64,000 bases of DNA from Planctomycetes bacterium ADurb.Bin069 (GCA_002070955.1 MWEK01000001.1:80103-144102); one strand, 5' to 3'; positions 6,180 through 51,993 are shown, counted from the stretch's first letter. Notes: a model not told the origin generated them from the letters alone. Translations and numbers: made by a program.

Positions 6180-6325
6180 TGCCTAAGTGCCTGACATGAC
6201 GTTGCCTAGAGGCAAGCGCCGTCAGCGCGGGGCTCCGCGGCTCCGGTGTGCCTCCGGCAGCGGCGGGACCGGCGCCGTCCCGGACGGCAACGATACCGGC
6301 GAGCCCGCAGTCACAAGGAGGCAAG

Positions 6326-7654
6326 GTGCCCACCCATTTGCACTTCGACTGTTTCAGCGGACTCAGCGGCAACATGCTGCTGGGCGCCATGCTCGATCTG
6401 GGAGTCCCCAGGCGCGAAATCGAGGATCACCTCAGAAAGCTGCCGATCGAGCCTTGGGCTTTGCGCGTCGAGGAAGTCCGCCGAGGCCCCATTCGCGCCA
6501 CATGGTGCAGCGTCGAGGCGCTTTCGCACGCGCACGGCGCTGAGGCGCACGATCACGCACATGAACACGATCACCACGATCCCGCCCACCCTCATTCCCA
6601 CGCTCACGCCTTCTGCCGCGAGCCGGACACGTGCAGCGCCGGCCGCCACAGCCCGCGGTTCGCGGACATCCGGGCAATGCTCGTCTCCGCCTCGCTTCCC
6701 TCGCGCGCCAGGGAAATCGCCTTGCGCGCCTTCGACCTGCTGGCCCGCGCCGAAGGGCGCATCCACGGCCTGCCGCCCGAGGACGTCGTGTTTCACGAGG
6801 TGGGCGCCGTGGATTCCATCGTCGATATCGTGGGAACGGCGCTGGCCGTCGCCGCCTGCGGAGCCGAACGGTTCTCGTGCGCGCCGCTGGTCTTAGGTTC
6901 GGGCTCCATCATGACCCAACACGGCCGCCTGCCGCTTCCCGCTCCCGCGACGGTGGAGCTTCTGCGCGGGGCGCCGGTGGTTCAACTCCCCCATCCGTTC
7001 GAATTCACCACGCCGACCGGCGCCGCACTCGTCATGGCGCTTGTCGACCGCTTCGGCCCGCTCCCCGAACTGGTGCTGTCCGGCACGGGCTACGGCGCCG
7101 GCTCGGAGCGCCCCACACCCTTTCCGAACGTCCTCCGCGTGCTTGCCGGCTCCGCGCCGGCAACCGCCGATGCGCCGGCGGTCGTGTTCGAGACGAACAT
7201 CGACAACGCGGCTGGGGAAGACATCGGCCATGTGCTCGCGGCCCTCCTGGCCGCCGGCGCCCTGGATGCCTTCGCCGCGCCGGTGCAGATGAAGAAGAGC
7301 CGCCCCGCGCAGGTGCTCACATGCGTCTGCCGCCCCGCGGACCAGGCGGCTCTCGAAGAGATCGTGTTCCGGAACCTGCCCACTCTCGGCATCCGCAGCC
7401 ACGGCGTCTCGCGCCGCATCCTCGATCGCCGCCACGTGAAGGTGGCGACGCCGTGGGGAACCGTGCGAGTGAAGGAGGCCTTGCGGGGCGGCGTCGTTCT
7501 GCACGCCACTCCGGAGTACGATGACCTGCACGCCTGCGCCGAGGCGCACAGGATCGGCATTGGCCTTATTCGTCGCGCGGCCATGGCGGCCTACGCGCAG
7601 CGGCGGGAAGGACGCGGGGAAGAGCCGTCCCCCGAGCCTTCCGGCGCGTTGTGA
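6326..7654 (+). CDS. larC: nickel insertion protein LarC (pyridinium-3,5-bisthiocarboxylic acid mononucleotide nickel chelatase, DUF111 family)
   Basis: GTG at 6326 follows AAGGAGG. Starts VPTHLHFDCFSGLSGNMLLGAMLDLG and contains HEVGAVDSIVDIVG. A His-rich stretch (HAHGAEAHDHAHEHDHHDPAHPHSHAH) is typical of LarC. Confidence 0.85.
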   Translation: MPTHLHFDCFSGLSGNMLLGAMLDLGVPRREIEDHLRKLPIEPWALRVEEVRRGPIRATWCSVEALSHAHGAEAHDHAHEHDHHDPAHPHSHAHAFCREPDTCSAGRHSPRFADIRAMLVSASLPSRAREIALRAFDLLARAEGRIHGLPPEDVVFHEVGAVDSIVDIVGTALAVAACGAERFSCAPLVLGSGSIMTQHGRLPLPAPATVELLRGAPVVQLPHPFEFTTPTGAALVMALVDRFGPLPELVLSGTGYGAGSERPTPFPNVLRVLAGSAPATADAPAVVFETNIDNAAGEDIGHVLAALLAAGALDAFAAPVQMKKSRPAQVLTCVCRPADQAALEEIVFRNLPTLGIRSHGVSRRILDRRHVKVATPWGTVRVKEALRGGVVLHATPEYDDLHACAEAHRIGIGLIRRAAMAAYAQRREGRGEEPSPEPSGAL

Positions 7655-18775: not shown

Positions 18776-19279
18776 CTACACGTTTTCCGGGGTGCTGCGG
18801 TGCCCGCTGCGCGGCTCGTGCTCGCCGGTCTTGCGCTCGCCCAGGCAGGAATCGCGCTGGAGGGGGTAGCGGGCCATGTCCTCGTCGTTGTGATCCTTGT
18901 CAATCTCGTGCCAGTACATGACCTCCTTGTCGCCGGGCCGCCAGCACAGGAAGACGAGGCGGTTATCCTTCTCCGAGAAGAAATCGACCCAGCCGCGCTC
19001 CGAATCCTTCAGAATGCCCCCCAGGGATGCAATCTCGCGCCGGAGATCGTCGAGGTCGGTGTCCATGGCGCCGAGTTCCATCCGTATTCTCTCGACGGTC
19101 TCCTCGACCTCGCGGGACATGACTTTCCGGAAGCAGTTCCTGAAGTACGCGAACCGTTTTTCGTTGCGCTTGCGCTCCCGATGGACCGTGCGGATGTCCC
19201 GCACGATCCGCTTCACCAGCGGGAGCCGGTTATTGACCTCCACGGAGGAGAGGATCTCCAAGCGGTGCCTTTTTTTCAT
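18776..19279 (-). CDS. DUF2203-family protein
   Basis: GGILKDSERGWVDFFSEKDNRLVFLCWRPGDKEVMYWHE matches my recollection of the DUF2203 core. The gene is slightly lower in GC than its neighbours. Confidence 0.6.
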   Translation of the reverse strand: MKKRHRLEILSSVEVNNRLPLVKRIVRDIRTVHRERKRNEKRFAYFRNCFRKVMSREVEETVERIRMELGAMDTDLDDLRREIASLGGILKDSERGWVDFFSEKDNRLVFLCWRPGDKEVMYWHEIDKDHNDEDMARYPLQRDSCLGERKTGEHEPRSGHRSTPENV

Positions 19280-19560
19280 GCGAAACCTCGCTGTTCTCGG
19301 GCACTAAGCTCCATCGTAGAGGCCGCCCGGCAAAAAAGCAAAGCCTTTTTCAACCTCGCGTCCCTTTTCTACCCGCCGCCTTCGCGCCAAGACCGCCGCA
19401 CGGCGCCTTGGATCCTGTCGTGAAGCGCCGCGGCGCGAAGGAGGCGGCCGCCTTGACGTCCTGTCATTTTTTTCCGGCGGCGCAAGCTCGCGACGATCCG
19501 CTCCGCGGCCGCGCGCCGCCGGTCCGGCGGCGCGGCGCGCGAACGCGTCTAACCTCCCGC

Positions 19561-19579
19561 CGGTCTAGGCCTTAGACCG
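19561..19579. promoter_or_regulatory. 7-bp inverted repeat CGGTCTA-N5-TAGACCG just upstream of a promoter (candidate operator)
   Basis: Perfect arms at 19561-19567 and 19573-19579. It ends 17 nt before the -35 element at 19597. Confidence 0.45.
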
Positions 19580-19596
19580 TGCGCCGCGGCTGAACG

Positions 19597-19625
19597 TTGT
19601 CAGCGGCGCTGCGCGCCTCTATAAT
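19597..19625 (+). promoter_or_regulatory. sigma70-type promoter (TTGTCA-17 nt-TATAAT) for the dockerin-protein gene
   Basis: TTGTCA at 19597-19602, a 17-nt spacer, then TATAAT at 19620-19625. It lies about 80 nt upstream of the ATG at 19706. Confidence 0.6.
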
Positions 19626-19705
19626 TGACCCTTGTCGCTCATGGGTCTGTTTTACGGCCGCCGTACGCTGTAGGCACGGCGGACGGCCCCCGCACTTGAG
19701 AGAGC

Positions 19706-21817
19706 ATGTTTCGCAGAGGAGTGCACACCGTGAAACGAGCTTGGCTGTGTCTCATGGTCGGCGCGTCAATGGCGCTGGGCGCCGCGGGCGACCTGCTCGG
19801 AACGAAGTCCTTCCCGAACCAAAGGTGGAGCGATGTCGCCTTCGCCCCCGACGGCACCGTCTGGGCCTTGGGCGAAGCGGACGGTTTGATCCACCATTTA
19901 TCCGCAGCGCTCGAGCTCACGGGAACGATTCCGCATCCCTTCGGCGCGGCCGCGCCCATGCCGCCCTTCAGGCCGGTCTGCCGCGGCCTTGCCCACGACG
20001 GCGCGCAATCCAATCTCATCGTCCTCAACGGCAGCACTTTCGAGATCGCGCGGGTCAATCCCGCCGACGGCGCGCAGATCGGCGCCTACGTCCTGCTCCA
20101 GCCTCCCGCCGGGGCCGCCCTCGCTGGTCTGGCCTTCGATGCCTCGGGCAACGTGCTTTGGTCGGTGGACTCGGAAAACGACCGCGTGCTCGGCTTCGAT
20201 CCCGCGACCGGCGCGCTGCTCAAGAGCAATCCCTTCCCCGGCGATGCGCCCCCGGAGGCCTATCTGCACGGAACGGCGCTCGCTTACGTGACCCGGACCG
20301 AAGGTCAATTTCTGTACGTTCCCTGGGGCGACATCTTCGCGGGCCGCGCCGACACGGTGGCGATCCTCAACGCCGCGGACGGCGCGGCGTATCCCTTCGA
20401 AATCCCCTTGGCCGCCGCGGGCGCCGGCGCGATCCGCGGCATTGCCGTGGCCGGGAACAGCATCCTCGTTCTGCTCTCGCGCACGAACGAGACGGCGATC
20501 GCGAGTCTGAGCGGCGTTTGGCCCTCGTTCCTGCCGGTCTCCAATCTCGCCTGCCGCCCGCAAGAGAACGGCACGGTGGAGTTGACCTGGCGCAACAACG
20601 GCGCCGGGCCGGGCGGCGCCTACACGGAGCTGTCCATTCTCAGGAACGGCGCCGCCGTGGCGCAGCTCGGCGGCGGCGCCGCCGCGTACACCGACACCGC
20701 CGCGCCCGCCGGCGTGATCACCTACACCGTGCGCCCCAGGCAAGGGCTCGAACGCGGCCTCGATCGCAGCCGCACGCTGCGCAACGGCCGCGGCGCCGTG
20801 TTGAGCTGGATTCCCTTCCCCGGGGGCACCGTGTCCGGCATCGCCGTCGATCCCGACACGGGCGACGTCTGGGCGGCGGACTCCAAGGCGATCGACGCGA
20901 AGCTCTATCGCCTCCGGCATTTCACCCCGGATCTCGTCCAGGTGGGATACGTCGATGTGTCGCTCCTGTCGGGCGCGCCGTACGGACTCACCTTTTGGCC
21001 GAACGCGCCCATCGTCGATCCGCCCGAGACCTTGCTAATGCTGGGGAACGACGCCACCAACGCCGTGCAGAAGCTGCGCCGGAACGGAACGGCCGTGGGC
21101 GGCGCCGTGCCGCTGCAGCTCCCGGCGGGCGGACCCAACGACCCGCCGCCGAAAGTGGGCTCCTTGGCCTTCGACCCCGGCAACGGCGACCACTTCTTGA
21201 GCGTGCTGGATGACAATCTCCACCGCATCGTTTGGGTGGACCGCTACGGCTTCCCGCCCAACCCGGGCAACACGGAACTGCGCCGCCTGTGCACCCCGGC
21301 GGGGCTCTATCAGGCGACGCCCCACCGCGGCCTGGATCGGTGCCCCCAGAGCGGGCACTTGCACTTCGGCGTGGCCGGCGCGGCGATCCGCGAGGTCGAC
21401 TCCCATTGCAACGTCACGACCTTCGATCTCCAGGCTTATGTTCCCGCCGGACACCGCCAGGCGGACCAGATCAGGGATTTCGCCTACCGCGGGAACATCG
21501 TGTACGTGGCCAGCCCCGCCAACAACGCGATCTTCCGGATTCTCGCGTTCCCGACGGGAAGGCCGTTCGTGCGGGGCGACGCCGACGAAAGCGGAGCCGT
21601 CAACGTCGCCGACGTCGTGTCCGTCCTCATGTATCTTTTCGAGAAGGGGCCCGACATTACCTGTAAGGACGCCGCGGATGTGAACGACGACGGCAGGATC
21701 GACATCTCCGACACGGTGTACCTGCTCTTTTACCTCTTCGGCGAAGGACCGCCTCCCCCGGCGCCGTTTCCCGAGCCGGGGACGGATCCGACGTTGGCCG
21801 ATGAACTGTCGTGCTGA
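19706..21817 (+). CDS. secreted beta-propeller-like / Fn3-like protein with C-terminal dockerin module
   Basis: 703 aa. Signal peptide (AWLCLMVGASMALGAAGD). Fn3-like segment (VELTWRNNGAG...YTVRP). The C-terminus carries two EF-hand-like dockerin repeats, GDADESGAVNVADVVSVLMYLF and DVNDDGRIDISDTVYLLFYLF, followed by a PPPP linker and the ADELSC end. Confidence 0.7.
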   Translation: MFRRGVHTVKRAWLCLMVGASMALGAAGDLLGTKSFPNQRWSDVAFAPDGTVWALGEADGLIHHLSAALELTGTIPHPFGAAAPMPPFRPVCRGLAHDGAQSNLIVLNGSTFEIARVNPADGAQIGAYVLLQPPAGAALAGLAFDASGNVLWSVDSENDRVLGFDPATGALLKSNPFPGDAPPEAYLHGTALAYVTRTEGQFLYVPWGDIFAGRADTVAILNAADGAAYPFEIPLAAAGAGAIRGIAVAGNSILVLLSRTNETAIASLSGVWPSFLPVSNLACRPQENGTVELTWRNNGAGPGGAYTELSILRNGAAVAQLGGGAAAYTDTAAPAGVITYTVRPRQGLERGLDRSRTLRNGRGAVLSWIPFPGGTVSGIAVDPDTGDVWAADSKAIDAKLYRLRHFTPDLVQVGYVDVSLLSGAPYGLTFWPNAPIVDPPETLLMLGNDATNAVQKLRRNGTAVGGAVPLQLPAGGPNDPPPKVGSLAFDPGNGDHFLSVLDDNLHRIVWVDRYGFPPNPGNTELRRLCTPAGLYQATPHRGLDRCPQSGHLHFGVAGAAIREVDSHCNVTTFDLQAYVPAGHRQADQIRDFAYRGNIVYVASPANNAIFRILAFPTGRPFVRGDADESGAVNVADVVSVLMYLFEKGPDITCKDAADVNDDGRIDISDTVYLLFYLFGEGPPPPAPFPEPGTDPTLADELSC

Positions 21818-21897
21818 ACGCGGCGCCTCGGAAAGCCGGCGACCCGGACGCGGCCGTCGCCGGCGGGTCCTGTATCCGTGAAGGCTGGGGAACCGGC

Positions 21898-23265
21898 ATG
21901 ATGCGAGGAACATTGCTTTTCCTAAGCGCGATGGTCTGCGGCGCCGCGTTGTGCGCCGCCGACACGCTGCGCTTCGGCGCGGTCGCCATGGATCCCGGAG
22001 ACGAGGCCGCTCTCCCGGTCTGGGTGCGCAATGCCGAGACCATCCACGGCCTGTCGCTGGCGTTTTCCTACGACGGCAGGCAGCTCCGTGTGCGGGGCTT
22101 CGCCGTCAACGAAGAGTACGTTTCCGCCGACGCCGTCGAGTACATTCAAGTCAACGATGTTCCCGCCGAGAACCACGCCGTGATCGCCGTCCTCTTCATG
22201 TGGGGCGCGCCTTCGGCCTCCTCGGGATTTCCGGCGGCGCCCGACGGGGAGGAGCGCTTGCTCGGGTGGATCGTCTTCGGCAGCACCGAAGCCACGCAGC
22301 CGGCGCCGTACACGATCCTCCCGCGCAACAACCTCGGCGCCCCCCCCATCAGCAACACCTTCGCCGTGAACGGGGGGCACAGCGTGCTGCCGGCGCTGGC
22401 CGCCGGCGTCGTCGAGGTGCGCAATCACAACGTGTTGCGCCTGCGCACCGCCTACGCCCGCCCGGGCGGCTCGGCCCGCATGCTCATCGAGGTCGATCAC
22501 GCCCAGCCCCTGGCGGGGGTTCAAATCGCGCTCGCCTTCGACAACGACGTCCTGCGCCTCCGGGAGGATGCGCCGCAGTCGGAAAACCCCTGCGAGCGCT
22601 CCATCAACTATTGCGGCCTCGAGGTCGAGGCGCTTCTCGCCCCGCAGGTCGTCGAGCAGTTCGTGCTGCGCGTCGAGAACGAACTCCTGCCCGGCCGCGG
22701 CTGGGCCGGCTGCGGCATGGTCTTCGATTACCGCCTGCCCTACCAGGATCACGTGTTGCCCGCCGGGCGGGCCCAGAGCATTCTCGCGGCGCATTTCCTC
22801 GTGGCCGGCACGGCGCGGCCCGGCGCGCGCCTCCCCGTGGAGTTCGCCGACGGCCTGGGCGAGCCGCCCATGGACAACAAGGTCCTCGTGGCGCTGCGCG
22901 ACGACGGCGGCCGGGTCCTGGACATCGTCAGCATCGCGCCGGCGTACGAGCAAGGTACGGTGATCGTCGTCGCGGAAGAAGCGGCGTTCCGGCGGGGTTA
23001 CGTCAACGGGGACGACCGCCGCAATGTCGGCGACGTGGTCGCCCTGCTGGGATTCCTATTCGCCGACGGCAGGGAGCCCGCCTGCCTCAAGGCGGCCGAC
23101 GCCAACGACGACGGCAAGCTCAACGTGGCGGATGCCGTCCGGCTGCTCGCTTACCTATTCACCCCGGGCAGCCCGCCGCTGCCGGCGCCATCCGTCGCTT
23201 GCGGTTTCGATCCGACGCCCGACGGCCTGTCCTGCCTGGTCGGCACCCACGAATGCGCGCCGTGA
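21898..23265 (+). CDS. secreted protein with two cohesin-like domains and a C-terminal dockerin module
   Basis: ATG at 21898 (MMRGTLLFLSAMVCGAALCAAD signal). Cohesin-like signatures FGAVAMDPGDEAALPVWVRNAETIHGLSLAFSYDGRQLRV and ARPGGSARMLIEVDHAQPLAGVQIALAFDNDVLRL. C-terminal dockerin NGDDRRNVGDVVALLGFLF...DANDDGKLNVADAVRLLAYLF...DGLSC. Confidence 0.6.
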   Translation: MMRGTLLFLSAMVCGAALCAADTLRFGAVAMDPGDEAALPVWVRNAETIHGLSLAFSYDGRQLRVRGFAVNEEYVSADAVEYIQVNDVPAENHAVIAVLFMWGAPSASSGFPAAPDGEERLLGWIVFGSTEATQPAPYTILPRNNLGAPPISNTFAVNGGHSVLPALAAGVVEVRNHNVLRLRTAYARPGGSARMLIEVDHAQPLAGVQIALAFDNDVLRLREDAPQSENPCERSINYCGLEVEALLAPQVVEQFVLRVENELLPGRGWAGCGMVFDYRLPYQDHVLPAGRAQSILAAHFLVAGTARPGARLPVEFADGLGEPPMDNKVLVALRDDGGRVLDIVSIAPAYEQGTVIVVAEEAAFRRGYVNGDDRRNVGDVVALLGFLFADGREPACLKAADANDDGKLNVADAVRLLAYLFTPGSPPLPAPSVACGFDPTPDGLSCLVGTHECAP

Positions 23266-23332
23266 AATCCTAGGCATCAAACCGCGCTTGTCTGTCTCGG
23301 CCCGGGTTCGCGGCCGGGGCGCCCCGGGGGAT

Positions 23333-24082
23333 TCACGCGCCCGCGGGCGCGTCCAACACCCCCGCGGGATCATGAAGGAACCGGAGGTACTCGCCCCGCG
23401 TCCGGAGGCTCCGCACGGCGGGATGCGGCCTTTCCGGCCCGGCCGGAGGGGATGTTCGCAAAGCCCAAGTCCATACGGGCCGCAGCCCCGCTCTCAGCGC
23501 TCCCTCCACATCGACCCGGTAATCATCGCCCACATAAGCCATACGCTCTCCGCGCCCGGGGAGCCCGCGCAGAATCGCTTCGAAGCAGCGGGGGTCCGGT
23601 TTGGCGTACCCCACCTCCCGGGAAACGATGACTTTCGCGAATAGGCCGTGGACTCCGTCGCGACGGAGCACGCGGTGAATCGGTTCGGACAGGAGGTAGT
23701 TGGAGAGTAGGCCCAGGCGGCAGCGCGCCGCGAGAGCCGGCAGCGCCGCGCCGATCTCGGCGTCCACCCGCACGTGCCTGACGAAGCTTGCGACGGCGCA
23801 GGCCTCGATTTCGGCGCACAGCGCCGGCTCCGGCCCGCGGCCGGCGGCGGCGAGGACCCGCTGGAGACGCGCGCCGAAATCGTGCTCCTCGCCCGACAGC
23901 GCCGACCGCGCGAAGTCCGCTTCGCGCTCCGCGAGCCACAGAGCCGTGAACTCCGCCGCGTCGATGCCGGCGCGCCGTTCGGCGCACGCGGCGATATCCG
24001 CGGTGATCGACGCCGCTTCACCCTCGTTGAAGGGCGCCAGCGTGTTGCCGAAATCGAAGATGATCGTCCAGGATGCTTCCAT
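23333..24082 (-). CDS. HAD-superfamily hydrolase
   Basis: MEASWTIIFDFGNTL (DxG-type motif I variant), LLSN, KPDPRCF, YVGDD. ATG at 24082 chosen within a longer track ORF. Confidence 0.7.
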   Translation of the reverse strand: MEASWTIIFDFGNTLAPFNEGEAASITADIAACAERRAGIDAAEFTALWLAEREADFARSALSGEEHDFGARLQRVLAAAGRGPEPALCAEIEACAVASFVRHVRVDAEIGAALPALAARCRLGLLSNYLLSEPIHRVLRRDGVHGLFAKVIVSREVGYAKPDPRCFEAILRGLPGRGERMAYVGDDYRVDVEGALRAGLRPVWTWALRTSPPAGPERPHPAVRSLRTRGEYLRFLHDPAGVLDAPAGA

Positions 24083-33103: not shown

Positions 33104-35770
33104 CTACTGACCGAAGCGCTCGATCTCCTCATGCCGGAGATCGACCAACTTCGCGGTGAGCAGGATGATCAGGCTGCGCCGCTCGCGCAGCTCGGCCTTG
33201 CGGCTCACGAGCAGGTTCAGCAGCGGGATGTCCCCGATAATCGGGATCGAGGATTGGTACATGCGCTCCTCCAGGCTCCGGAAGCCGCCCAGGAGCACCG
33301 TGCCGCCGTCCGGGACGGTGACCGACGTCCACGTGCGCTGGATGGACATTTTCGGCAGCCCGATCGGGACCTGCATGGCGGCGGCCATGACCGTGCCGAG
33401 GTTAATGAGCACGGTGGAAATCACGCCGCCTATCAGGGTCGCGAGCGTCGGCTGGACGTCGATGGTGATGTACTTGCGGTCCGCGCTCACGCTCGGGCGC
33501 ACATCCAGCACCACGCCTTCCTCGTTCACGTGCACCACCGGGTCCGCCACTTCCGTAAGGGTGTACGTCGTGCCGCCGGACACCAGCTCGTAATCGGCGA
33601 TATACGATCGCTGTGTGATCACCGACACGTACACGCGCTGGCCGTTGTGCGCCGTGACCTCGGGCGCGATCACCGACTTGACCCCGCTCTCCTCTTGAAC
33701 CGCGCGCACGATGGCGTTGATCTGGTACGGATCCACCATGGTCAACTGCAAGCTCAAGCCGCTCAGTCCGCCGGGACCGCCGAAAATACGGTCGCCGCGA
33801 ATCAGGCTCGCGTAGCCGTCCAGGGTGTTCTGCAGGCGCCCGACCAACTCGGGGGGCTTGCCGTCCGCCTTTCTTCTCGCGATCGCTTCGATACTGTCGG
33901 TGAATCCCGGATCCTGCCCGCCCGTTCGGCTGTCGTGGATCCGGCCGTGGTACATGTTGAACCCGGTCGAGCTGCGCTGGCTGAGGTTGCGGTAGTCGAT
34001 GCCGATATCCTCCAGAAAATCGCTGGTGATATCCACGAAGCGCGCCTTGACCACCACGAAGAGATCGGAGTCCTGCCGCAGTTCCTCCAGCACGCGGGCC
34101 ACCCTCGCGTGCACCTCGGGGCTGGCTTCAACGAGGAGCTGCCCGCGGTGGATCTCGATGCGGTTGATCTCCCCGTCCCAGACGGAATCGCCGCCCGTGC
34201 TCTCTTGGACCAGCTTCTGAAGCTGCTCGGGCTCGAGCGTTTTGGATTCCTCGCCCTCGCTGAACTGGAAGCCCGTGCCGCCGGGCCCGCCGCCGGACTC
34301 GGATTCCTCGTCGGGAGATCTGATCTCGAGGCGCGGGCCGGGGAAATCCCTGATCTTGCTCAGGATGTCCGTCACCGTGTAGATCTTGAGGATGGCCAGG
34401 CCTCGCGCCCTCTCAGGCACCGTGATCGTCAGGACGTTGTTCCTGAAGGTGTAGGCCAGCCCCGTATTGAGCATCATCAGATCAAGCGCATCCTCGAGCT
34501 TCATCTGCGTGAGGTTGAGCTTGACCTTGGTCTCCTCGGGATCCACGTTCTTGTCGATGTGAATGTTGATCCCGGTGATCTTCTTAATGTAATCGATGGC
34601 ATCGGCGAGGGGCTTGTTGTCGAAGTCGATGGTGATCCGCGCGGTCGCCAGGCGCCGTTTGATCTCCCTGACCTCCTCGGACTCCTCGATGACGCCGATT
34701 TGCACGTCGGCCTCGCGCGCCCTGATAATGTCCCAGCGCTCCTCGCCGGGAAACTCGAAAACGCTCGAGGGGGGTTTGGCCGCATCCGCGAGCCCTTCCC
34801 AGGTCAGCTTCGCGTGCTCCTTGAGCGCCGCGTCGTGCTCCTGCTCCCAAAGGGTCCTGTCCTTCTTTCTGGAGTTCTTGAGAAGGGCCCGCGCCTGGAT
34901 CTGGCGCGGATTCTCCTTCAGGACCACTTCGCAGATCTGCATGCACTGCGTGTAATCCTGGCGGTGATAAGCTTCGCTCGCGGCCTCGACCAGCACCCTG
35001 ATACGCTCCCTCTTCTGTTGGTCGCGGAAGGCCGCATCCTTCGCGATCGCCGCCCGGATCGCCTCCTCTTGCTGTTCACGGGTTTCGCCCGCGCGCCGCC
35101 GCAGCAGATCGTTCGTCTCGCGCAGGAGCTCCTCCAGGCGCCTCTGGCGCCCTTGCGTCTCGGCCGAGGCCTCGAACAAAGCCAGGCGGGCTTTCCCCTG
35201 CTGGAGCATCAACTGGGCTTCCTGGAGCTGGTGCTCCCCCATGGCCTTCGCGGCATCCTCGATGAGGCGGTCGATTTCGTTCAGGCGCGCCTCGCGCTCG
35301 ACCTTCAATTCGGCGGTCCAGTCCTGCATGAAACTCCCGACGGACGCTTCGCGCTGGCCGAGCATCGTCTCGCACCGGCGCAGCTTGCTGAACGCTTCGT
35401 CGTTCTCGGGGTCGGCTTTGCGCGCCTGCTCGTAGAACTCCATTGCGGCCTTGTAATCCAACTCATCGTACTTTTTATCGCCGCGGAGGACGTACTGCGC
35501 CGCCAGTTGGCGGCTGATGCTCTTCTTCTCTTGGATCGCTTGGAGGATCTCGGCTTCGCCCTCCGCGGACCTTTCGGGCACGGCCGGCGCGGGCATGGGG
35601 GCTGCGGCGGGCGTCTCGGTCTCCCGGCGGCCCGGCTTCTCGTCGGTCTGCGCCGCCGCCGAACCCTCCTTCGAGATGTTGGTCCGCGCCGGGGGCGTCT
35701 TCTGCGGCTGCAGGCAGCCGGCGCCCGCGACGAGGGCTCCGATCGTAAGTACGGCAGTGAACCTTCTCAT
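33104..35770 (-). CDS. secretin-family outer-membrane channel (paralogue 2) with long N-terminal TPR/coiled-coil region
   Basis: ATG at 35770 follows AAGGAG. Signal peptide MRRFTAVLTIGALVAGAGC. N-domain RITIDFDNKPLADAIDYIKK. C-terminal secretin signature VPDGGTVLLGGF...IPIIGDIPLLNLLVSRK. Confidence 0.85.
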   Translation of the reverse strand: MRRFTAVLTIGALVAGAGCLQPQKTPPARTNISKEGSAAAQTDEKPGRRETETPAAAPMPAPAVPERSAEGEAEILQAIQEKKSISRQLAAQYVLRGDKKYDELDYKAAMEFYEQARKADPENDEAFSKLRRCETMLGQREASVGSFMQDWTAELKVEREARLNEIDRLIEDAAKAMGEHQLQEAQLMLQQGKARLALFEASAETQGRQRRLEELLRETNDLLRRRAGETREQQEEAIRAAIAKDAAFRDQQKRERIRVLVEAASEAYHRQDYTQCMQICEVVLKENPRQIQARALLKNSRKKDRTLWEQEHDAALKEHAKLTWEGLADAAKPPSSVFEFPGEERWDIIRAREADVQIGVIEESEEVREIKRRLATARITIDFDNKPLADAIDYIKKITGINIHIDKNVDPEETKVKLNLTQMKLEDALDLMMLNTGLAYTFRNNVLTITVPERARGLAILKIYTVTDILSKIRDFPGPRLEIRSPDEESESGGGPGGTGFQFSEGEESKTLEPEQLQKLVQESTGGDSVWDGEINRIEIHRGQLLVEASPEVHARVARVLEELRQDSDLFVVVKARFVDITSDFLEDIGIDYRNLSQRSSTGFNMYHGRIHDSRTGGQDPGFTDSIEAIARRKADGKPPELVGRLQNTLDGYASLIRGDRIFGGPGGLSGLSLQLTMVDPYQINAIVRAVQEESGVKSVIAPEVTAHNGQRVYVSVITQRSYIADYELVSGGTTYTLTEVADPVVHVNEEGVVLDVRPSVSADRKYITIDVQPTLATLIGGVISTVLINLGTVMAAAMQVPIGLPKMSIQRTWTSVTVPDGGTVLLGGFRSLEERMYQSSIPIIGDIPLLNLLVSRKAELRERRSLIILLTAKLVDLRHEEIERFGQ

Positions 35771-35897
35771 GCCCGTCTCCTTTGGATTGCTTCGTCCGTT
35801 CATATGCTTCTCGCAACGGTTCGCGCGCCGCGCGGGTGTTCGCCTTCGCGCGCCGCGACGCCGCCTCGTTCCTCCCCGCCTCCTCCTTATGCCCCGC

Positions 35898-38432
35898 TTA
35901 CGGGAACGTGAGCTTCTCTTCTTCCTTGACGATCACGATGTCCGACTTGATCAACACGTACAGGCTGCTGCGCAGCCGCGACTGGCCCTGCCGCCCGAAC
36001 AAGATGTTGAGAAGCGGGATCCGCTGAAGCAGCGGGATGCCGATGCTTTTGTCCTGCTCGATCACCTTCTTCAGGCCGCCCACGAGGACGGAGCCGCCGT
36101 CGGGAATGGTGATCGTCGTCTGAATCCGCGACAGCAGAATCACGGGCAACTCGACCTGTACCATGGTGAAGCCCTGGGCGAGGCTCAAGTCCGCGTACTT
36201 CGAATCGATATGCTTGGCCGTGGTGGGATTCACCTCAAGGATCACGAACTTGCGGTCGTGCGTCACCGTGGGGCGGATCTCGAGCAGCGCTCCCACACGA
36301 AACGAGCCGATCAGCGGGTTGATCACCGGGCTGACGCCGGTCTGGTTGACATCGACGTCCTTGATATACGCGATCTGGTCGATCACCATGGTGTGCGCCG
36401 TCTGGGAATCGAAGGCGAGGACGCGGGGGGCGCCCAGCGAGAGCATCTTCTGCTTCTTCTGGACCATGGAAAGGATGCCCTCGAGCTGGTAGTCCTCCAG
36501 CTTGTTGAACTGCAGCGCCATACCGCCCTGGGCCGTGATGTTGAACGGCGTGATTTCGGTGCCCATGACGCCGCTGTAGTCGGAAATGTTGGCGCCGATC
36601 ATCCCGTACCGCTCGCGCCGGTCGAGGAACACATACCCCGACGCCAGCGAGGTTCCCAGGCCGTTCACATCGGGAATCGGATACTCCGGCGTGCTCTCCA
36701 CCGTCCCGCCGATGTTGACGCCGATCTCCTCCAGCAGGTTGTCCTGGATGTCGATGAAACGGGCCTCGCTCGCCACCAGGACCCCGGACAGCTTGCGCAA
36801 GCTCGCCAGCAGGTCGCTGATCTTGCGATGATTCTCCAGGGACGTCCTGACGACAAGCTTGCCGGTTTGCAGCTCGGCGGTGCCGTTCTTGTCGTCCCCG
36901 CCGAGGATGCGTTTGCGAATCAGCTCGACCAACTGCTCGCCGGGAAGCCCGGTTCTGGCCGTTTCAGTCTGCTCCACATCCAGCGTGACGGCCCCGCCCT
37001 GCTCCTTCCCGCCCGCGAGGCTGACCGACAAGTCCGGCGCCGGATAGTCCGGATGCTGATTAGCGATGTCCTCGACGGAGTAGAAGGCCAGATGCATTTT
37101 CTCGGTCAGCGAGCTTCTCGGCCCGATAACCACGGCGCCGTTCTGAATCTGGTAGCCGTAGCCTTCGCCCACGGACTCCAGCACGATGTCCAGCACGTTC
37201 TTGAGCATGAGCCCCTGGACTTCCGGCAGGTTGACCTTCAGGTCCTCGGACTCCATGGCCTCGCGGGCGGCCTTGTTGGGCACGAAGCTGATGCCCGCGC
37301 CGACGCCCGGCCCCGCCAGTTGGCCCAGGTAATCGAGCACCTCTTGGAGCGGACGATCCTCGAAGCTGATCCGCGGAATCCTGGTGGTCTCCAGGCTTCT
37401 GCGCACTTCGCGGTTCGCGATGGGTTCTTCCGCCGCGACCTGCTCCTCGAGGGAGATGCGCTCCTCGCCCAGCTTTTCCCAAACCCTGCGCGGCGGAAAC
37501 TGGAAGATGTGGTGGTAGGACACCGTCGTCTCCATGATGCCGCGCAAGACGAGATCCCAGTTCCTCCGGGTCTCGCGCTCGATCTTGTCCATGGTGAACA
37601 GGTGCCGCAGATACCGCGCCCGGGCGCGGATGGCCTGGGCCTCGGCGTCGCGGGGATCGATCTCGAGCACCAGCAATGCCTGCTGCTCCGCCTTGTCGAA
37701 CCGGTTCTCCTGGAGGGCCTCCTCGGCCTGGGTCTTGTACAGTTTGATGCGGTTCTCGATGTACACCAACTCGCGGACGCGGTCGCCCTTGACGCGATCT
37801 CTGAGATCGGCCTCCAGCCGCCGCTGCTCCTCGGCCTTCTGATCGGCCCCTTTCCGCGCGCACGTGTCCATATGCGCCCGCGCGGCCTTGACCAGATCGG
37901 GCATGTTCAGGCTCCAGGGATAATGGCTGTCAATCTCCACCACGCGGGAGAATTTCTCGAGGGCCTGCTCGTACTTATTCTGGGCCATCAAGGCCTCGCC
38001 ATCGGCAAAGAGCCGCTTGAGTTGGGCCTGCGCCTGCTCGACGAGCAGGACTTGGTCATCTTCGATCTTCCGGATGGTCTCCCGCCGCTCGCCGACGAGG
38101 CGCCCCAAGAGGAACTGCACCTCGTCCAGCTCGACCTGCGCGGCGCTCAGCGTCGGATCCAGTCGGAGCGCCTCCTGGAGCTCCTTCTCCGCGAGTCCGT
38201 ATCGGAGCTTGTCCTTCAGCTCGCGAGCTTTTTCCAGGTGCCTGCGGGCGGTTTCCCGGCGCACCTCCACCGCCAACTTGGTCTCCGCGCTCACCGCCGG
38301 AATGTCGGTCGGCGCCGCGGGGTCGGGCGCCGCCTGCGCGACGGCGCTCCAGGCGAGCGCCGCCGCCAGCGCGATCGCCCGCCCGCCCGTCGGAAAGAAT
38401 CTTCCTCCGCCCAGAAGCTCATGTGCGTTCAT
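35898..38432 (-). CDS. secretin-family outer-membrane channel (paralogue 1) with long N-terminal TPR/coiled-coil region
   Basis: ATG at 38432. Signal-like AIALAAALAWSAVAQA. IPRISFEDRPLQEVLDYLGQ. C-terminal IPDGGSVLVGGL...IPLLQRIPLLNILFGRQ. Confidence 0.85.
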   Translation of the reverse strand: MNAHELLGGGRFFPTGGRAIALAAALAWSAVAQAAPDPAAPTDIPAVSAETKLAVEVRRETARRHLEKARELKDKLRYGLAEKELQEALRLDPTLSAAQVELDEVQFLLGRLVGERRETIRKIEDDQVLLVEQAQAQLKRLFADGEALMAQNKYEQALEKFSRVVEIDSHYPWSLNMPDLVKAARAHMDTCARKGADQKAEEQRRLEADLRDRVKGDRVRELVYIENRIKLYKTQAEEALQENRFDKAEQQALLVLEIDPRDAEAQAIRARARYLRHLFTMDKIERETRRNWDLVLRGIMETTVSYHHIFQFPPRRVWEKLGEERISLEEQVAAEEPIANREVRRSLETTRIPRISFEDRPLQEVLDYLGQLAGPGVGAGISFVPNKAAREAMESEDLKVNLPEVQGLMLKNVLDIVLESVGEGYGYQIQNGAVVIGPRSSLTEKMHLAFYSVEDIANQHPDYPAPDLSVSLAGGKEQGGAVTLDVEQTETARTGLPGEQLVELIRKRILGGDDKNGTAELQTGKLVVRTSLENHRKISDLLASLRKLSGVLVASEARFIDIQDNLLEEIGVNIGGTVESTPEYPIPDVNGLGTSLASGYVFLDRRERYGMIGANISDYSGVMGTEITPFNITAQGGMALQFNKLEDYQLEGILSMVQKKQKMLSLGAPRVLAFDSQTAHTMVIDQIAYIKDVDVNQTGVSPVINPLIGSFRVGALLEIRPTVTHDRKFVILEVNPTTAKHIDSKYADLSLAQGFTMVQVELPVILLSRIQTTITIPDGGSVLVGGLKKVIEQDKSIGIPLLQRIPLLNILFGRQGQSRLRSSLYVLIKSDIVIVKEEEKLTFP

Positions 38433-38518
38433 CGTCGCAACCTCTCTCCGGGACACGCGCCTCAAGAGCCCGTGCCATGCCGCTGTCTTCGCATTGGCGC
38501 CACAGGCGCGCTCTCCTT

Positions 38519-39757
38519 TTACCTGAAGGGACCGCCGCCGGCATCGTCCTCGGCGGCCCCGCCCGCTTCATCCTCCGCCGGCTCCTTCTCGGCTCCCGCC
38601 GGCTCCTCGGCCGGAGGCTCGTCGCCGGCCTCCCGGTCGGGCCCGGGCGCCTCGGAAGCCGCCTCCGCCGGAGGCGTTTCCTCCGGCGTCAAGGTCTCTT
38701 CGCCCTCCTCCTCCTGCGGCGCCGCGGGCAGCTCCCAGGCTTTGGGACACTCGATCGATTCCGGCACCCACACCCCCTGCGGAAGCTGGATCTCCCTGCG
38801 CGTGTCGATGTCCTTCAGCACCGCCACAAGGCCCTTCTCTCCCTGCTTGATGACGTTCAGGTAGTACCTCGTGCGCGGCAGGAGGTCCTTGTCCGCGTCC
38901 GGTTTGCGCATCAGTCCGAGCAGCTCTTCGCGCTTGATCATGGGCTCGGAGACGGGCGCGCCCGCCGCGTAGTCGTAGGCGTCGACTTTGAAGTACCCTT
39001 CTCCCGCGCCGGAAAGATCATCAGCGATCTTTCCCTGGACGAACATCACCCGCAGATCATCGGGGATGACGTAGCTGCCAAGATCGGCCTCGGGCGGCGC
39101 CGGCTCCCCGCTCGTTTTCGTGGGCCCCGAATCCGCCCGCCACTTCGATTTGCTCCGAGTCGCGGTGGTCGTCACCCGATAGGTGTAGCTTGAGCCCGCC
39201 TTCACATCGGCATCCACGCACGTGTAGACCTCCGTGCCATCCACATGGGGGATGGTCGCAACCACCCGCCACGCGGCGGCGCCGGCGGCGCGGCGTTCAA
39301 CCCGGGCCGTCGCGGCGCTGACCTCGCTCAGCTCGCCGAACCTGAAGGTGACCGTGGCGACGGGTTTCTTCTTCTCCGCATCCCGGGTTATGGCAACGCT
39401 GGTGATGGCGGGCTCGCCGTGCACGGAGTCTAAAGTCGCCGCACGGCTGTAGATGCGCACGACGGCCGGCTGAACTTCCATGGCGAAGGCCGTCCACGCC
39501 TCCTTCGGTATCGACGCTTTGTCAGAGCGCCGCGTGATGGCCTCCCTCGGATCGGGAGGGGCCTCCGCGGGCAGCAGCTCGGCATCCTTTGCGTGGTCGT
39601 TGATCAACTTCAGATGCTGCGCGATGCGGTCCTGGCTGGTCTTGATCTTGTCCTCGCCCGTCATGGTGACGGCGATCATAGCGACGATGATCGCCGCCAC
39701 GATGCCGAACGCGAGCCGGTCGCAATGGGCTGTAAGTCGCTCCTTAACCGACGCCAT
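38519..39757 (-). CDS. membrane-anchored hypothetical protein with Fn3-like domain and acidic Pro/Glu-rich tail (occupies the PilP position)
   Basis: 412 aa. N-terminal TM FGIVAAIIVAMIAVTM. A beta-rich segment ends in AGSSYTYRV. The C-terminal ~70 aa are E/P/A-rich. The call is positional only. Confidence 0.5.
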   Translation of the reverse strand: MASVKERLTAHCDRLAFGIVAAIIVAMIAVTMTGEDKIKTSQDRIAQHLKLINDHAKDAELLPAEAPPDPREAITRRSDKASIPKEAWTAFAMEVQPAVVRIYSRAATLDSVHGEPAITSVAITRDAEKKKPVATVTFRFGELSEVSAATARVERRAAGAAAWRVVATIPHVDGTEVYTCVDADVKAGSSYTYRVTTTATRSKSKWRADSGPTKTSGEPAPPEADLGSYVIPDDLRVMFVQGKIADDLSGAGEGYFKVDAYDYAAGAPVSEPMIKREELLGLMRKPDADKDLLPRTRYYLNVIKQGEKGLVAVLKDIDTRREIQLPQGVWVPESIECPKAWELPAAPQEEEGEETLTPEETPPAEAASEAPGPDREAGDEPPAEEPAGAEKEPAEDEAGGAAEDDAGGGPFR

Positions 39758-39779
39758 GCTTGCTCCTCACGCTCCTGCG

Positions 39780-40835
39780 TTACTGGGCGAATCCTTTGTA
39801 TTTCAACACGCTCAGGGTGAGCCGCATCGTGGCCGTGGGCAGCTTCAGCTCGAAGTCCAACGGCGCCCGCTTCGCATCGTCCAGCCTCGGGAACGGCTCC
39901 TCCGCCTTGTAGGACGCCTTGAGCAGCCGATCCTTCTGCTTGGCCAGCACACACTCCTCGACGACGAAGAACACCGGGTCATCGGCATCCGCGGCGCGCA
40001 GTTCCAAGGCGTGCAGGAACGAACCGAGGTCTTCGAACCGAATCTCGCCGGCCGCCGTCAACCGCACGCGCTCGTACAGGTCGCGCGCGTCGTACTCGGG
40101 CACGACGGCGGCCTCCGGCGTTTTGGGCGCGGCCGCGCCCCTTCTCCCGGTCCTGGCGGGGGGCGGCGGCTTGGATCCCGCCGGGGCCGACGCCTTCGGT
40201 TTCTCCTCGGCCGCCCTGGTCCCCTTCTTCTTCTCGAAAACGACCGACGTCAGTCCGCCCCACCCAGCCTCGGTCGCCGCCGTGACGAGCGCCGTCGTGA
40301 TGCGGCACATCTGCGCCGCCGCGATCAGGTCGGCTTCGTTGCTCGAGATCGTCGGGCTCAACGAAATCTTGGACTGCGACGCCTCGGGCGCCGCGGCCGC
40401 GTGGGCCGGATACACGCGCTTCACGTACTCGGCGCGCACATCGGAGTACTTCCGGTTCAGATCGTCCAGCGCCGTATTGAACGCGGAGCCGAACGCCGCG
40501 TCCTCATGCGCCGTGAACGTTTCGCCGCCCTTGACAAGCTGCAGGCGCGCGAGCTTCTCGGCCCGTTCGGCGTAGAACCGCTCGACGTCCGCAAGAATCT
40601 TCCGCAGCGTCTCCTGGAGGTCCGTGTCGGCCTCGAGTTTACGCTTCGTGGGAAGATCCTCGGGTTTCCGCTTGGCGTAGCCGGCCAGCACGCTTTCGTT
40701 CTTCGAGATCTCGCGCTGCAGGCTGTGATACTTGCTGATGCCCCAGCTCCAGGTGACGAAGTAGGCGAAGGCTCCGATCGCGGCGAGCATGGCGATCACG
40801 CCGACCAGGAATCCGTTCTTCTTCAAGCTCTCCAT
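39780..40835 (-). CDS. membrane-anchored coiled-coil protein, PilO-like / Amuc_1100-like by architecture
   Basis: 351 aa. N-terminal TM FLVGVIAMLAAIGAFAYFV, then a coiled coil, a Pro/Ala/Lys linker and a C-terminal alpha/beta domain ending TMRLTLSVLKYKGF. The layout resembles my recollection of Akkermansia Amuc_1100. Not verified. Confidence 0.45.
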   Translation of the reverse strand: MESLKKNGFLVGVIAMLAAIGAFAYFVTWSWGISKYHSLQREISKNESVLAGYAKRKPEDLPTKRKLEADTDLQETLRKILADVERFYAERAEKLARLQLVKGGETFTAHEDAAFGSAFNTALDDLNRKYSDVRAEYVKRVYPAHAAAAPEASQSKISLSPTISSNEADLIAAAQMCRITTALVTAATEAGWGGLTSVVFEKKKGTRAAEEKPKASAPAGSKPPPPARTGRRGAAAPKTPEAAVVPEYDARDLYERVRLTAAGEIRFEDLGSFLHALELRAADADDPVFFVVEECVLAKQKDRLLKASYKAEEPFPRLDDAKRAPLDFELKLPTATMRLTLSVLKYKGFAQ

Positions 40836-40841
40836 GACGAC

Positions 40842-42971: not shown

Positions 42972-43245
42972 GAGTACCTCGACTGCGTGGGCTTCGTTTC
43001 GCTCTCCGCCTTCGCGCGCCCGGCGCACGAAGGACATGGTCGCTCATTCGCCGGGCCGGTTGCTCGGTGCACAATCGCACCCCGGCGCAGCACACTCTAC
43101 GTCCGCGAGGGCAAGCATCGGGGAGGGACACAACAACTGATCATCCCAGCCGGACGCGCGGCATCGGGATCGAACCCATTGGGTTTCTCCTCCGTTACTT
43201 GCTTCTCGTAAACAATGTACTGCGGCTCGGTCAATACAGACTTCG

Positions 43246-51600: not shown

Positions 51601-51909
51601 GAGGATTTGCCGCGCGAGCCGCGCGATCTCGGCGGCGCGCTGGGGCCTGGCCGCCGGGCCTCCCGCGGGCGCTTCGCGCCCGGCCTGGGCACCCTCGAGC
51701 TTGGCATCGGCGCTCTCCTCCCACTCGCACAGAACGACGGTCGCGCCTTCGATCGGCAGCCCATCGGCATCGACCACGACGCCGGAGACCGTCGCCCCGC
51801 GCGGACCGAGCGCGTCGGCGCCGTGCGATCCGCTTGCCAGCAGCGCGACGGCGCAACACACGACCGCATGGATTCCGCCCGCGCCGGGCAGAAACGCCGA
51901 CCCTCGCAT
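48610..51909 (-). CDS. secreted protein of ~12 tandem carboxypeptidase-regulatory-like (prealbumin-fold) domains
   Basis: 1099 aa with a signal peptide. Recurring units about 85 aa long, such as GRVVDARGFAVANAAVRA, GKVRGADGEPIAGASLAL and GSVVLPDGARAAGAVVAL...TDGEGRFRFEGLVPGAYTL. GGAGGTG lies before the ATG. Confidence 0.7.
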   Translation of the reverse strand: MRGSAFLPGAGGIHAVVCCAVALLASGSHGADALGPRGATVSGVVVDADGLPIEGATVVLCEWEESADAKLEGAQAGREAPAGGPAARPQRAAEIARLARQILGSRARTATERNGRFTFHGVEGEACRLAAFGGAYAPGLGPVLAVAENAAVDTVLTLAPGAKLAGRVVDARGFAVANAAVRARGSGGVEGAPGAAAPPDEALRVALAAAPEDVLTGADGRFAFSAAAPAFYDLVAVKEGHARAAAFDVEAPCDDLLLTLPPGAVLHGEVTDEKGARLAGAEITLAFEDARDALRSSLAVYQRPERFATRWGGETDARGAFAIENLREGTYTAIVGREDFVTAVFPGVRVAAAMRAPERFELARGLPLAGKILGPDRTPVAGAAVTLTARIKPRDGAVVPRIETTSDDRGFFRLTTLYPETYTLQVAGDGFAPLVRRVAPGTTPLELVLARGAMLAVEVRGEGGPLAEAFVSLRPGDAASEKSKGFPGAVRPRSARADDRGRLAFAGLPEGAYVLSAEAAGRLPGDRRITLVPGEHAAVTVVLGKAGVVRGKVRGADGEPIAGASLALAGNREAGGAAFGGRRAVLSAADGAWELPLRSAAAAARVRATHPDYLPAASAAFTVGDPARDGPSLDIVMMPGAVLKGTVVGPDGGKLAGIRVQARQGWREDGGPAARDGSRARQRVTDREGAWRIGGLEAGRCLVWIDQAPYAPYRAEAALAAGEVKDLAIALRAEARMRGKLVNARGEPVVGAAVAVAGAGLRRRVFSDQEGRFEAGGLSPGAGCAIEVRAEGYLPFRERAAVVSNEALVCTLVLPGELSGFVRGLPGRAPVRPVRMTLSGGRDAGARPQAPRVFDAADGAFLLEAVAPGVYDLRVESEAFPEFVLRGLRVGEGARVAGIDIVLEPGVEVRGTVRSPAGAPVEGARVRAAPARDADREMGAERGSGREHRRGAEGFDFLAAGQGVSDKDGAFTLRGIAPGEYTIEAHHDGYAAARSPALAVREDAPPEPVALQLAKGLALSGSVVLPDGARAAGAVVALSGPEKQARARTDGEGRFRFEGLVPGAYTLQALAGRGIRSAPLAVILADRDQEVVLRSWGSD

Positions 51910-51993
51910 AGGTCGCTTTCACCTCCTCTGCCTGAAACCCCGGCAAAGCCCCCCGGTGGCGGCCGGCCGCCGGGCCCGTGGCGCTCGCCGCCT

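Follow-up and report, generated by a model that had tools for sequence, protein, structure and literature searches.

Do two neighbouring genes for secreted proteins, one ending in a dockerin and the other carrying two cohesins and a dockerin of its own, encode an assembly system unrelated to cellulose degradation? This question is raised by positions 19,706 to 23,265 of a 64,000-nucleotide (nt) stretch of DNA from Planctomycetes bacterium ADurb.Bin069 (GCA_002070955.1, MWEK01000001.1:80103-144102), the whole of which we refer to as the window. Gene 1 (19706-21817, plus strand) encodes a protein of 703 amino acids (aa) with the predicted order propeller-Fn3-propeller-dockerin, and gene 2 (21898-23265, plus strand) encodes a 455-aa protein with a predicted signal peptide, two cohesins and a dockerin. 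A preliminary description had interpreted them as a self-contained non-cellulosomal pair, and our analysis supports this interpretation for the domains, the secretion, the non-cellulosomal nature and the functional pairing, but not for the self-containment. We lean, with somewhat better than even confidence, towards reading the pair as a minimal cohesin-dockerin system, non-cellulosomal in nature, that assembles a multivalent display of propellers.

The pairing is supported most strongly by the recurrence of the two genes as a cassette. A gene-1 homologue lies directly 5′ of a gene-2 homologue in the window and in loci L001, L003, L006, L010, L011, L013 and L015 (eight lineages), and the cassette was present in 8 of the 11 assessable lineages or loci, in at least three genomic contexts; two further loci were too short and were left out of this count. 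The cassettes of L001/L002 (84% and 78% identity) and L003/L004 (65% and 62%) share a his/trxB...rpsI neighbourhood, that of L006/L007 (46% and 42%) is inverted relative to its neighbours, those of L010, L011 and L015 (26-32% and 31-33%) lie downstream of an aspS-like gene, and that of L013 (29% and 32%) adjoins purH and has genes that overlap by 4 nt. Identities in the cassettes went down to 26-33% over full length, and the pairwise E-values of the gene-1 homologues were 4e-44 to 8e-83. At one extreme the homologous genes overlap by these 4 nt and at the other they are about 80 nt apart, unless a paralogue stands between them; the latter is the case in L010, where an additional 414-aa cohesin-cohesin-dockerin paralogue (L010:4449-5693) makes up a three-gene cassette. 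The taxonomic breadth described here comes from metagenome protein searches, and a scan of GTDB representatives with a single protein returned one relative only, from Planctomycetes bacterium UBA4800, which is the closest species representative of this uncultured member of the Planctomycetota. Because the cassette recurs in eight lineages and several genomic contexts, the claim that genes 1 and 2 are a functional pair is strongly supported; the recurrence is good evidence for functional coupling, though not proof of exclusivity.

Whether gene 2 really carries two cohesins is a question that its sequence alone answers weakly, but one to which a 56-member family alignment, structure prediction with AlphaFold2 (AF2), Foldseek comparison and profile searches of the PDB give a solid answer. 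Cohesin 1 (aa 21-175; 21958-22422, plus strand) was recognized by Pfam, profile, AF2 and Foldseek, and cohesin 2 (aa 176-363; 22423-22986, plus strand) by profile and by its paralogy to cohesin 1. While a word-indexed search returned only four close full-length homologues of gene 2, an exhaustive HMMER scan, run with the cohesin region alone (aa 22-365), gave 113 cluster representatives, most of them 430-550 aa long and collinear with gene 2. In the alignment of 56 sequences (A4), 13 matched Pfam Cohesin (best 3e-8) and 25 matched Dockerin_1. The top PDB matches of the cohesin 1 family profile (A5) were all cohesins (4dh2_A, E=0.02; 1g1k_A, E=0.08), and the profile of cohesin 2 (A6) matched the cohesins 5lxv_A (E=5e-5) and 3l8q_A (E=9e-5). 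A usable AF2 model was obtained with A4 as input, at a predicted local distance difference test score (pLDDT) of 92.6 and a predicted template modelling score (pTM) of 0.82, with cohesin 1 mostly above 90; the four close homologues had given a pLDDT of 38. Foldseek matches of this model in the PDB were, at the top, nearly all cohesins or cohesin-containing scaffoldins (4fl4_C, E=2e-13), with template modelling (TM) scores to type I cohesins of 0.80 (6kgc_A), 0.76 (1aoh/1anu) and 0.76 (3ul4_A), and of 0.73 to the non-cellulosomal Archaeoglobus fulgidus cohesin 2xdh. Both domains thus fit the type I cohesin fold (PF00963), a nine-stranded beta jelly-roll superimposable on solved cohesins. The two cohesin-like domains of the preliminary description are confirmed by family-level profiles and predicted structure, and, as far as the fold is concerned, the comparisons returned cohesins and not the unrelated beta-sandwiches that would have spoken against them.

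The two cohesins are clearly paralogous (hhalign of A5 against A6, probability 99.8%, E=1e-28) and have long been distinct. Across the family their sequences fell into clean reciprocal clades, with 37 of 38 nearest neighbours belonging to the same class, and mean identity was 30% within cohesin 1, 28% within cohesin 2 and 22% between the classes; the duplication is therefore older than the family, both positions having been kept distinct. The strand-3 motifs also differ systematically, cohesin 1 having 'IHGxSLA..Y' (HGxS) and cohesin 2 'PLxGxQxA..YD' (xGxQ). Cohesin 2 has in addition a loop insertion with a cysteine pair (NPCERSINYCG, aa 232-239; 22591-22614); Cys232 and Cys239 are conserved among close relatives only, being invariant in the four-sequence alignment, and may form an additional disulfide in this domain. 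With a signal peptide, cohesin 1, cohesin 2 and a dockerin, collinear in the 56 aligned representatives, the product of gene 2 is a small adaptor-type scaffold in which two anciently diverged type-I-like cohesins precede a dockerin. In 19 of the 56 members a CarboxypepD_reg domain is sited between cohesin 2 and the dockerin. The same domain type occurs elsewhere in the window, in a 1102-aa open reading frame (ORF) on the minus strand (48610-51918) with eight CarboxypepD_reg repeats (E=1e-99).

Both genes have the duplicated Ca loop and helix of about 22 residues that defines dockerin type I (PF00404), and the dockerin assignments of the preliminary description were confirmed, by Dockerin_1 in gene 1 and by family profile and AF2 helices in gene 2. 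The gene-1 dockerin (aa 621-678; 21566-21739, plus strand) consists of the Ca-loop/helix repeats DADESGAVNVAD and DVNDDGRIDISD, with Cys653 (21662-21664) in the linker between them. It scored 25.6 bits in Pfam Dockerin_1 against a cut-off of 22.9 (aa 624-671), matched PDB dockerins with E-values of 3.7e-4 to 1.3e-5, and belongs to a family all eight of whose members match Dockerin_1 (best 7e-9). For the gene-2 dockerin (aa 364-424; 22987-23169, plus strand), with loop 1 YVNGDDRRNVGD, loop 2 DANDDGKLNVAD and linker Cys396 (23083-23085), the family profile (A1) matched PDB dockerins with E=1e-3, and the AF2 model has helices at residues 377-388, 397-400 and 410-421. At positions 1, 3, 5, 9 and 12, where type I dockerins have acidic or amide Ca ligands, the residues are D,D,S,N,D and D,N,D,D,D in the two loops of gene 1, and Y,N,D,N,D and D,N,D,N,D in those of gene 2. 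A six-frame regular-expression scan of the window found three dockerin-type Ca loops, all inside genes 1 and 2; loop 1 of gene 2, with Tyr at position 1, falls outside the expression.

The dockerins are also of two types. That of gene 1 has 'F[VI]RGD', a canonical loop 1, the ending '...P.PG.DPT...C' and a 1+1 arrangement of cysteines, and that of gene 2 has 'FRRGx', a variable position 1 in loop 1, the ending '...CG.DPT.D.L.C.....C' and a 1+3 arrangement. A neighbour-joining tree separated the two types in six of seven cassettes, which fits two distinct specificities as far as sequence can indicate them.

The cysteines in and after the dockerins had been described as foreign to classical clostridial dockerins. 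This is right, as the clostridial dockerins in our PDB alignments have no Cys at the linker or tail positions of genes 1 and 2, and the residues behave as intramolecular disulfide staples. Gene 1 ends in a Pro-rich strap, which lies outside the Pfam dockerin model, and the invariant motif PGTDPTLADELSC (21740-21814, plus strand), whose last residue is Cys703 (21812-21814); Cys653 and Cys703 were invariant in all eight homologues. Gene 2 similarly ends in a Pro-rich strap and a Cys-rich tail, …PAPSVAC435GFDPTPDGLSC446LVGTHEC453AP (23170-23262, plus strand), in which C446, like C396 in the linker, was invariant and C435 and C453 were at least 90% conserved (56 sequences, A4). The Cys of the 'CG' motif (C435) and the last Cys (C453) were jointly present in 14 of 14 sequences and jointly absent in 6 of 6 in a 20-sequence dockerin alignment (A8). 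Among 216 dockerin modules, 174 had a linker Cys plus one or three tail Cys, and total Cys counts were even in 185 and odd in 31, in a crude parse in which many odd cases are parsing artefacts. Since Cys parity is even and the second pair is gained and lost together, we infer intramolecular staples: C653-C703 would be the staple of gene 1, and gene 2 would have its equivalent, C396-C446, tying the Pro-rich strap back onto the linker, plus an optional second staple, C435-C453. Our search of the literature on disulfide-containing bacterial dockerins turned up no description of this variant; all that it brought concerned fungal dockerins, non-covalent 'clasps' or disulfides introduced by engineering. 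In NCBIfam the only matches, all marginal, were to CelK at its dockerin end, and neither a dedicated family nor a 'GC-type dockerin' model came up.

What gene 1 would bring to such an assembly is a pair of propellers. An N-terminal NHL-like beta-propeller region (aa 30-268; 19793-20509, plus strand) was identified by profile matches: the family profile matched designed NHL-type 'Pizza6' propellers with E=4e-6 over aa ~30-170, and across eight homologues Pfam returned NHL (4.7e-5), Phytase-like (9e-5), DUF6923 (5e-5) and SGL (2.5e-3). It is followed by an Fn3-like domain (aa 269-361; 20510-20788, plus strand) with a W...Y.Y.V pattern and a weak profile match, with E=0.04 over positions 272-353, to the Fn3 domain of chitinase A1 (1k85), and by a second propeller-like region (aa 362-612; 20789-21541, plus strand), which matched YncE/surface-layer propellers weakly (E ~0.24, about 363-414). 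The second region is paralogous to the first, the two aligning over 214 columns in hhalign (95%, E=3e-8). The two propeller-like regions and Fn3 domain of the preliminary description are thus supported, and Pfam and profile searches of the gene 1 family, a narrow one of six proteins in the indexed search, detected no catalytic family. Judged by its domains, the product of gene 1 is a non-catalytic propeller-Fn3-propeller protein with a C-terminal dockerin.

Both proteins are predicted to be secreted. The Sec signal peptide read from the sequence of gene 1 (aa 1-28; 19706-19789, plus strand) has an n-region KR, a hydrophobic core and small residues, and the alignment shows a conserved mature N-terminus behind it; cleavage would fall between …ASMALGAAG and DLLGT. 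In gene 2 the predicted Sec signal peptide, MMRGTLLFLSAMVCGAALCA before ADT (aa 1-20; 21898-21957, plus strand), was likewise recognized in the sequence; in the family alignment a variable N-terminus precedes a conserved mature start, and the first 20 residues had an AF2 pLDDT of about 52-55. Lipoprotein anchoring was considered for both products and rejected, the Cys in the signal peptide not being conserved and no conserved lipobox being present.

Both ORFs were found on the plus strand where the preliminary description had placed them, every peptide string quoted in it was found in the translations, and the GC content at third codon positions (0.86 for gene 1 and 0.88 for gene 2) matches expectation for genuine genes in a window of ~70% GC. 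The length of gene 1 stood at 703 aa, but gene 2, described as 456 aa long and beginning 81 nt downstream, proved to be 455 aa long with an 80-nt gap. In NCBI a protein 100% identical to the product of gene 1 bears the name 'dockerin type I repeat-containing protein [Planctomycetota bacterium]', and an alternative GTG start gives a 695-aa form that is present in NCBI. The frame of gene 2 stays open upstream to a GTG at 21811, and we prefer the ATG at 21898 because the homologues begin MMR... and are 455-478 aa long. The two genes are probably co-transcribed as a two-gene operon, to judge from a single promoter-like site 5′ of the pair and the absence of an intergenic terminator: a sigma-70-like candidate (TTGTCA-17-TATAAT, 11 of 12 consensus positions; 19597-19625, plus strand), identified by consensus match only, lies ~80 nt 5′ of gene 1 and is the sole promoter-like match in 19200-23700 (mean of 0.3 in shuffled sequence), and no plus-strand terminator-like site was found between the genes, in the 80-nt spacer (21818-21897).

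In the mechanism that we favour, both products would be exported through their Sec-type signal peptides into an oxidising compartment, where the dockerins would be locked by one disulfide in gene 1 and two in gene 2. One cohesin of gene 2 would receive the gene-1 dockerin in a Ca2+-dependent manner, and the second cohesin together with the differently typed dockerin of gene 2 would link this unit onward, either to a further copy of the gene 2 product, so that oligomers grow head to tail, or to a cohesin or dockerin partner encoded elsewhere. The outcome would be a multivalent display of propellers, ligand-binding or structural, at the cell envelope or surface, and cellulose degradation would not be among its functions. 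The scheme predicts that cohesin and dockerin physically bind, that they are specific for their partners and that chains may form, and with only two sockets and two plug types the matching of plug to socket is directly testable with four recombinant modules.

A stricter version, which we hold to be rather doubtful, would make the pair a self-propagating, non-enzymatic polymer of the surface or periplasm, one cohesin taking the gene-1 dockerin and the other the dockerin of the next gene-2 product; the plug of gene 1 would have one disulfide and a canonical loop 1, and that of gene 2 two disulfides and a degenerate loop 1. If this were true, the polymer would be a disulfide-hardened head-to-tail filament or lattice decorated with propellers, held together by cohesin-dockerin contacts throughout. 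Specific to a Planctomycetota clade, it would serve the envelope in a structural or adhesive role, and its redox-locked dockerin would be a new subtype.

Several observations weigh against a dedicated two-gene assembly system. No membrane or cell-wall anchor, SLH domains and sortase signals included, was found in the pair. Searched singly, gene 2 fell short of the Pfam thresholds, with 19.2 bits for Dockerin_1 (cut-off 22.9) and, for Cohesin, 19.6 bits (cut-off 24.1; E=1.1e-3) over domain 1 only (aa 27-102, in a numbering with one additional N-terminal residue) and no match in domain 2. In its first Ca loop Tyr replaces Asp at position 1, which is not conserved across the gene 2 family. A profile of the Cys-stapled dockerin matched at least 735 proteins at E<1e-5; the named carriers were mostly Planctomycetota, with one from Armatimonadetes and, in a separate search, one from Anaerolineales, and the contexts were diverse (FG-GAP, NHL, metallophosphoesterase, LTD+CotH), so that many rival clients may exist. 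The scaffolds in L008, L009 and L016 have no gene-1 neighbour, and for this reason the cohesins of gene 2 need not be dedicated to gene 1. In L016 a gene for an LTD+CotH+dockerin protein stands one gene from the scaffold in place of gene 1, which suggests that the clients of the scaffold family vary from lineage to lineage. The L016 scaffold itself (P0032, 5001-6590) is a distant cohesin-cohesin-CarboxypepD_reg-dockerin homologue, and the LTD+CotH+dockerin protein (L016:7693-10734, minus strand; 1013 aa) has a dockerin with a 1+3 Cys tail. With so many other carriers, and with related scaffolds beside other clients or none, the earlier description of the pair as self-contained is not supported.

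These findings bear directly on the alternative that gene 2 is an open adaptor, recruiting varied Cys-stapled dockerin proteins, with the products of both genes docking onto a separate, anchoring cohesin protein and the adjacency reflecting co-regulation and not an exclusive partnership. The abundance of the stapled dockerin on diverse proteins, the scaffold homologues without gene 1 and the lack of an anchor domain in the pair all point this way, as does the fact that cellulosomal adaptor scaffoldins operate likewise (PMC4959524). Yet in 8 of the 11 assessable loci the two genes have stayed together through several relocations, and the flanks of the cassette loci hold no third cohesin or dockerin gene apart from the scaffold paralogue of L010; we regard this explanation as unlikely, though one to be taken seriously. 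The high pTM of 0.82 for a three-domain chain and the very short linkers, cohesins 1 and 2 abutting with ~6 residues before the dockerin, could instead mean that the gene-2 dockerin binds a cohesin of its own chain, as an autoinhibited or structural contact, giving a compact monomer with one cohesin free for gene 1 and neither polymer nor onward link. A rigid cohesin dyad alone can raise pTM, however, so short a linker may keep the dockerin from reaching the canonical binding face, and the CarboxypepD_reg domain that separates cohesin 2 from the dockerin in 19 of 56 members speaks against a fixed contact in cis, which we consider improbable. Less credible again is an account without plug and socket, in which the cohesin-like jelly rolls would bind glycan, peptide or an envelope polymer, or be structural, and the dockerin-like Ca/disulfide modules would be tags for envelope attachment or stability. 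In its favour, our literature search found no experiment that demonstrates cohesin-dockerin binding for a pair from the Planctomycetota, gene 2 has a degenerate first Ca loop, and Pro and Cys abound in the tails. Against this, even Cys counts are in the overwhelming majority, in line with disulfides within molecules rather than between them, the canonical sequence signatures and fold are kept in both types of module, and binding has been demonstrated for archaeal non-cellulosomal pairs according to the studies that PMC9012536 cites as its references 167 and 168. The assembly of the two products into a non-cellulosomal complex remains the reading that we prefer.

The surroundings of the pair are consistent with its non-cellulosomal nature. 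The preliminary description had reported no glycoside hydrolase or carbohydrate-binding module (CBM) nearby, and this was borne out by Pfam, with none in the pair, in ten large ORFs of the window or in the syntenic annotated loci; nor was any peptidase or anchor domain found in the pair or in the large window ORFs scanned. The neighbours of the pair are housekeeping genes, namely the his operon, thioredoxin reductase, DUF2203, an HAD hydrolase, rpsI/rplM and a TPR protein. About 10 kb downstream lies a pilus or type-II-secretion-like export cluster (33104-43043), with two secretin genes in tandem on the minus strand (33104-35932, with STN; 35898-38567, with TPR), then two ORFs without Pfam match and a PilM/FtsA-like gene (40842-43043, minus strand). 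The plus-strand gene at 6200-7654, for a nickel insertion protein of the LarC type (PF01969, E=5e-124), has no relation to the pair.

As a concept, a cohesin-dockerin system of this kind is not new, contrary to what the preliminary description implied, and the cassette overturns no concept. Potentially self-associating proteins with both cohesin and dockerin and non-cellulosomal scaffolds have already been described (PMC4611034, PMC9012536, PMC6461901), the amylase Amy4 (PMC4611034) and the scaffolds of anaerobic methanotrophic (ANME) archaea (PMC9012536) preceding the present case. What is new is the conserved cassette, the non-catalytic propeller cargo and the dockerin subtype with its putative disulfide staples; if real, the Cys-stapled dockerin would be attractive in practice for designer scaffolds, as a redox-stabilised affinity module.

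Compared with known systems, gene 2 most resembles the cellulosomal adaptor scaffoldins, such as Clostridium thermocellum CipA Coh9-X-DocII (3kcp/4fl4) and the Acetivibrio cellulolyticus dyad (3l8q), which are likewise secreted, have tandem type-I-like cohesins followed by a dockerin, and gave the best structural matches to the model. In contrast to these, gene 2 has no CBM, X-module, SLH domain or sortase anchor and no dockerin-bearing carbohydrate-active enzymes nearby, the host belongs to the Planctomycetota, and the cargo is a non-catalytic propeller protein. Relative to the aligned clostridial dockerins, those of the pair add a Pro-rich strap and one or two putative disulfides. We accordingly rejected membership in a cellulosome, there being no dockerin-borne carbohydrate-active enzymes, no scaffoldin CBM and no SLH or sortase anchor in the pair.

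Closer in spirit are systems outside the cellulosome. Amy4 of Ruminococcus bromii carries cohesin and dockerin on one chain and, as proposed in PMC4611034, may both aggregate with itself and bind other proteins that have a dockerin. It shares with gene 2 the presence of socket and plug on a single protein, but it is a GH13 amylase of a starch-degrading Firmicute, whereas gene 2 has no enzyme domain, two cohesins and a conserved adjacent partner gene. ANME archaea have non-cellulosomal scaffold-like proteins with one dockerin and up to five cohesins (PMC9012536). The archaeal systems resemble the present one in using cohesin-dockerin modules outside polysaccharide degradation and, for 2xdh, in structure; they differ in belonging to another domain of life, in having ABC substrate-binding and S-layer proteins as the ANME clients, and in that no Cys-stapled dockerin has been described there. 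The cohesin and dockerin modules of A. fulgidus, too, are encoded by adjacent genes.

For the Planctomycetes themselves, the 'planctosome' hypothesis of Andrei et al. (2019) proposed a non-cellulosomal cohesin-dockerin complex in the freshwater Nemodlikiaceae, made up of a 2,210-aa cohesin protein anchored by LTD, an adaptor with the order dockerin-HYR-cohesin, and M12B/M14 peptidases that bear dockerins (PMC6461901). Its adaptor bears both dockerin and cohesin, as gene 2 does, but the parts here are a cohesin-cohesin-dockerin scaffold and a propeller-Fn3-propeller-dockerin protein, and membership in a planctosome was rejected, LTD, HYR and M12B/M14 being absent from genes 1 and 2 and from their family members. 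The LTD+CotH+dockerin protein near the distant scaffold homologue in L016 can be set beside the LTD domain of that proposal. To the Planctomycetota non-cellulosomal cohesin-dockerin systems, which are mostly hypothetical, the cassette thus adds a cleanly delimited and conserved case of two genes.

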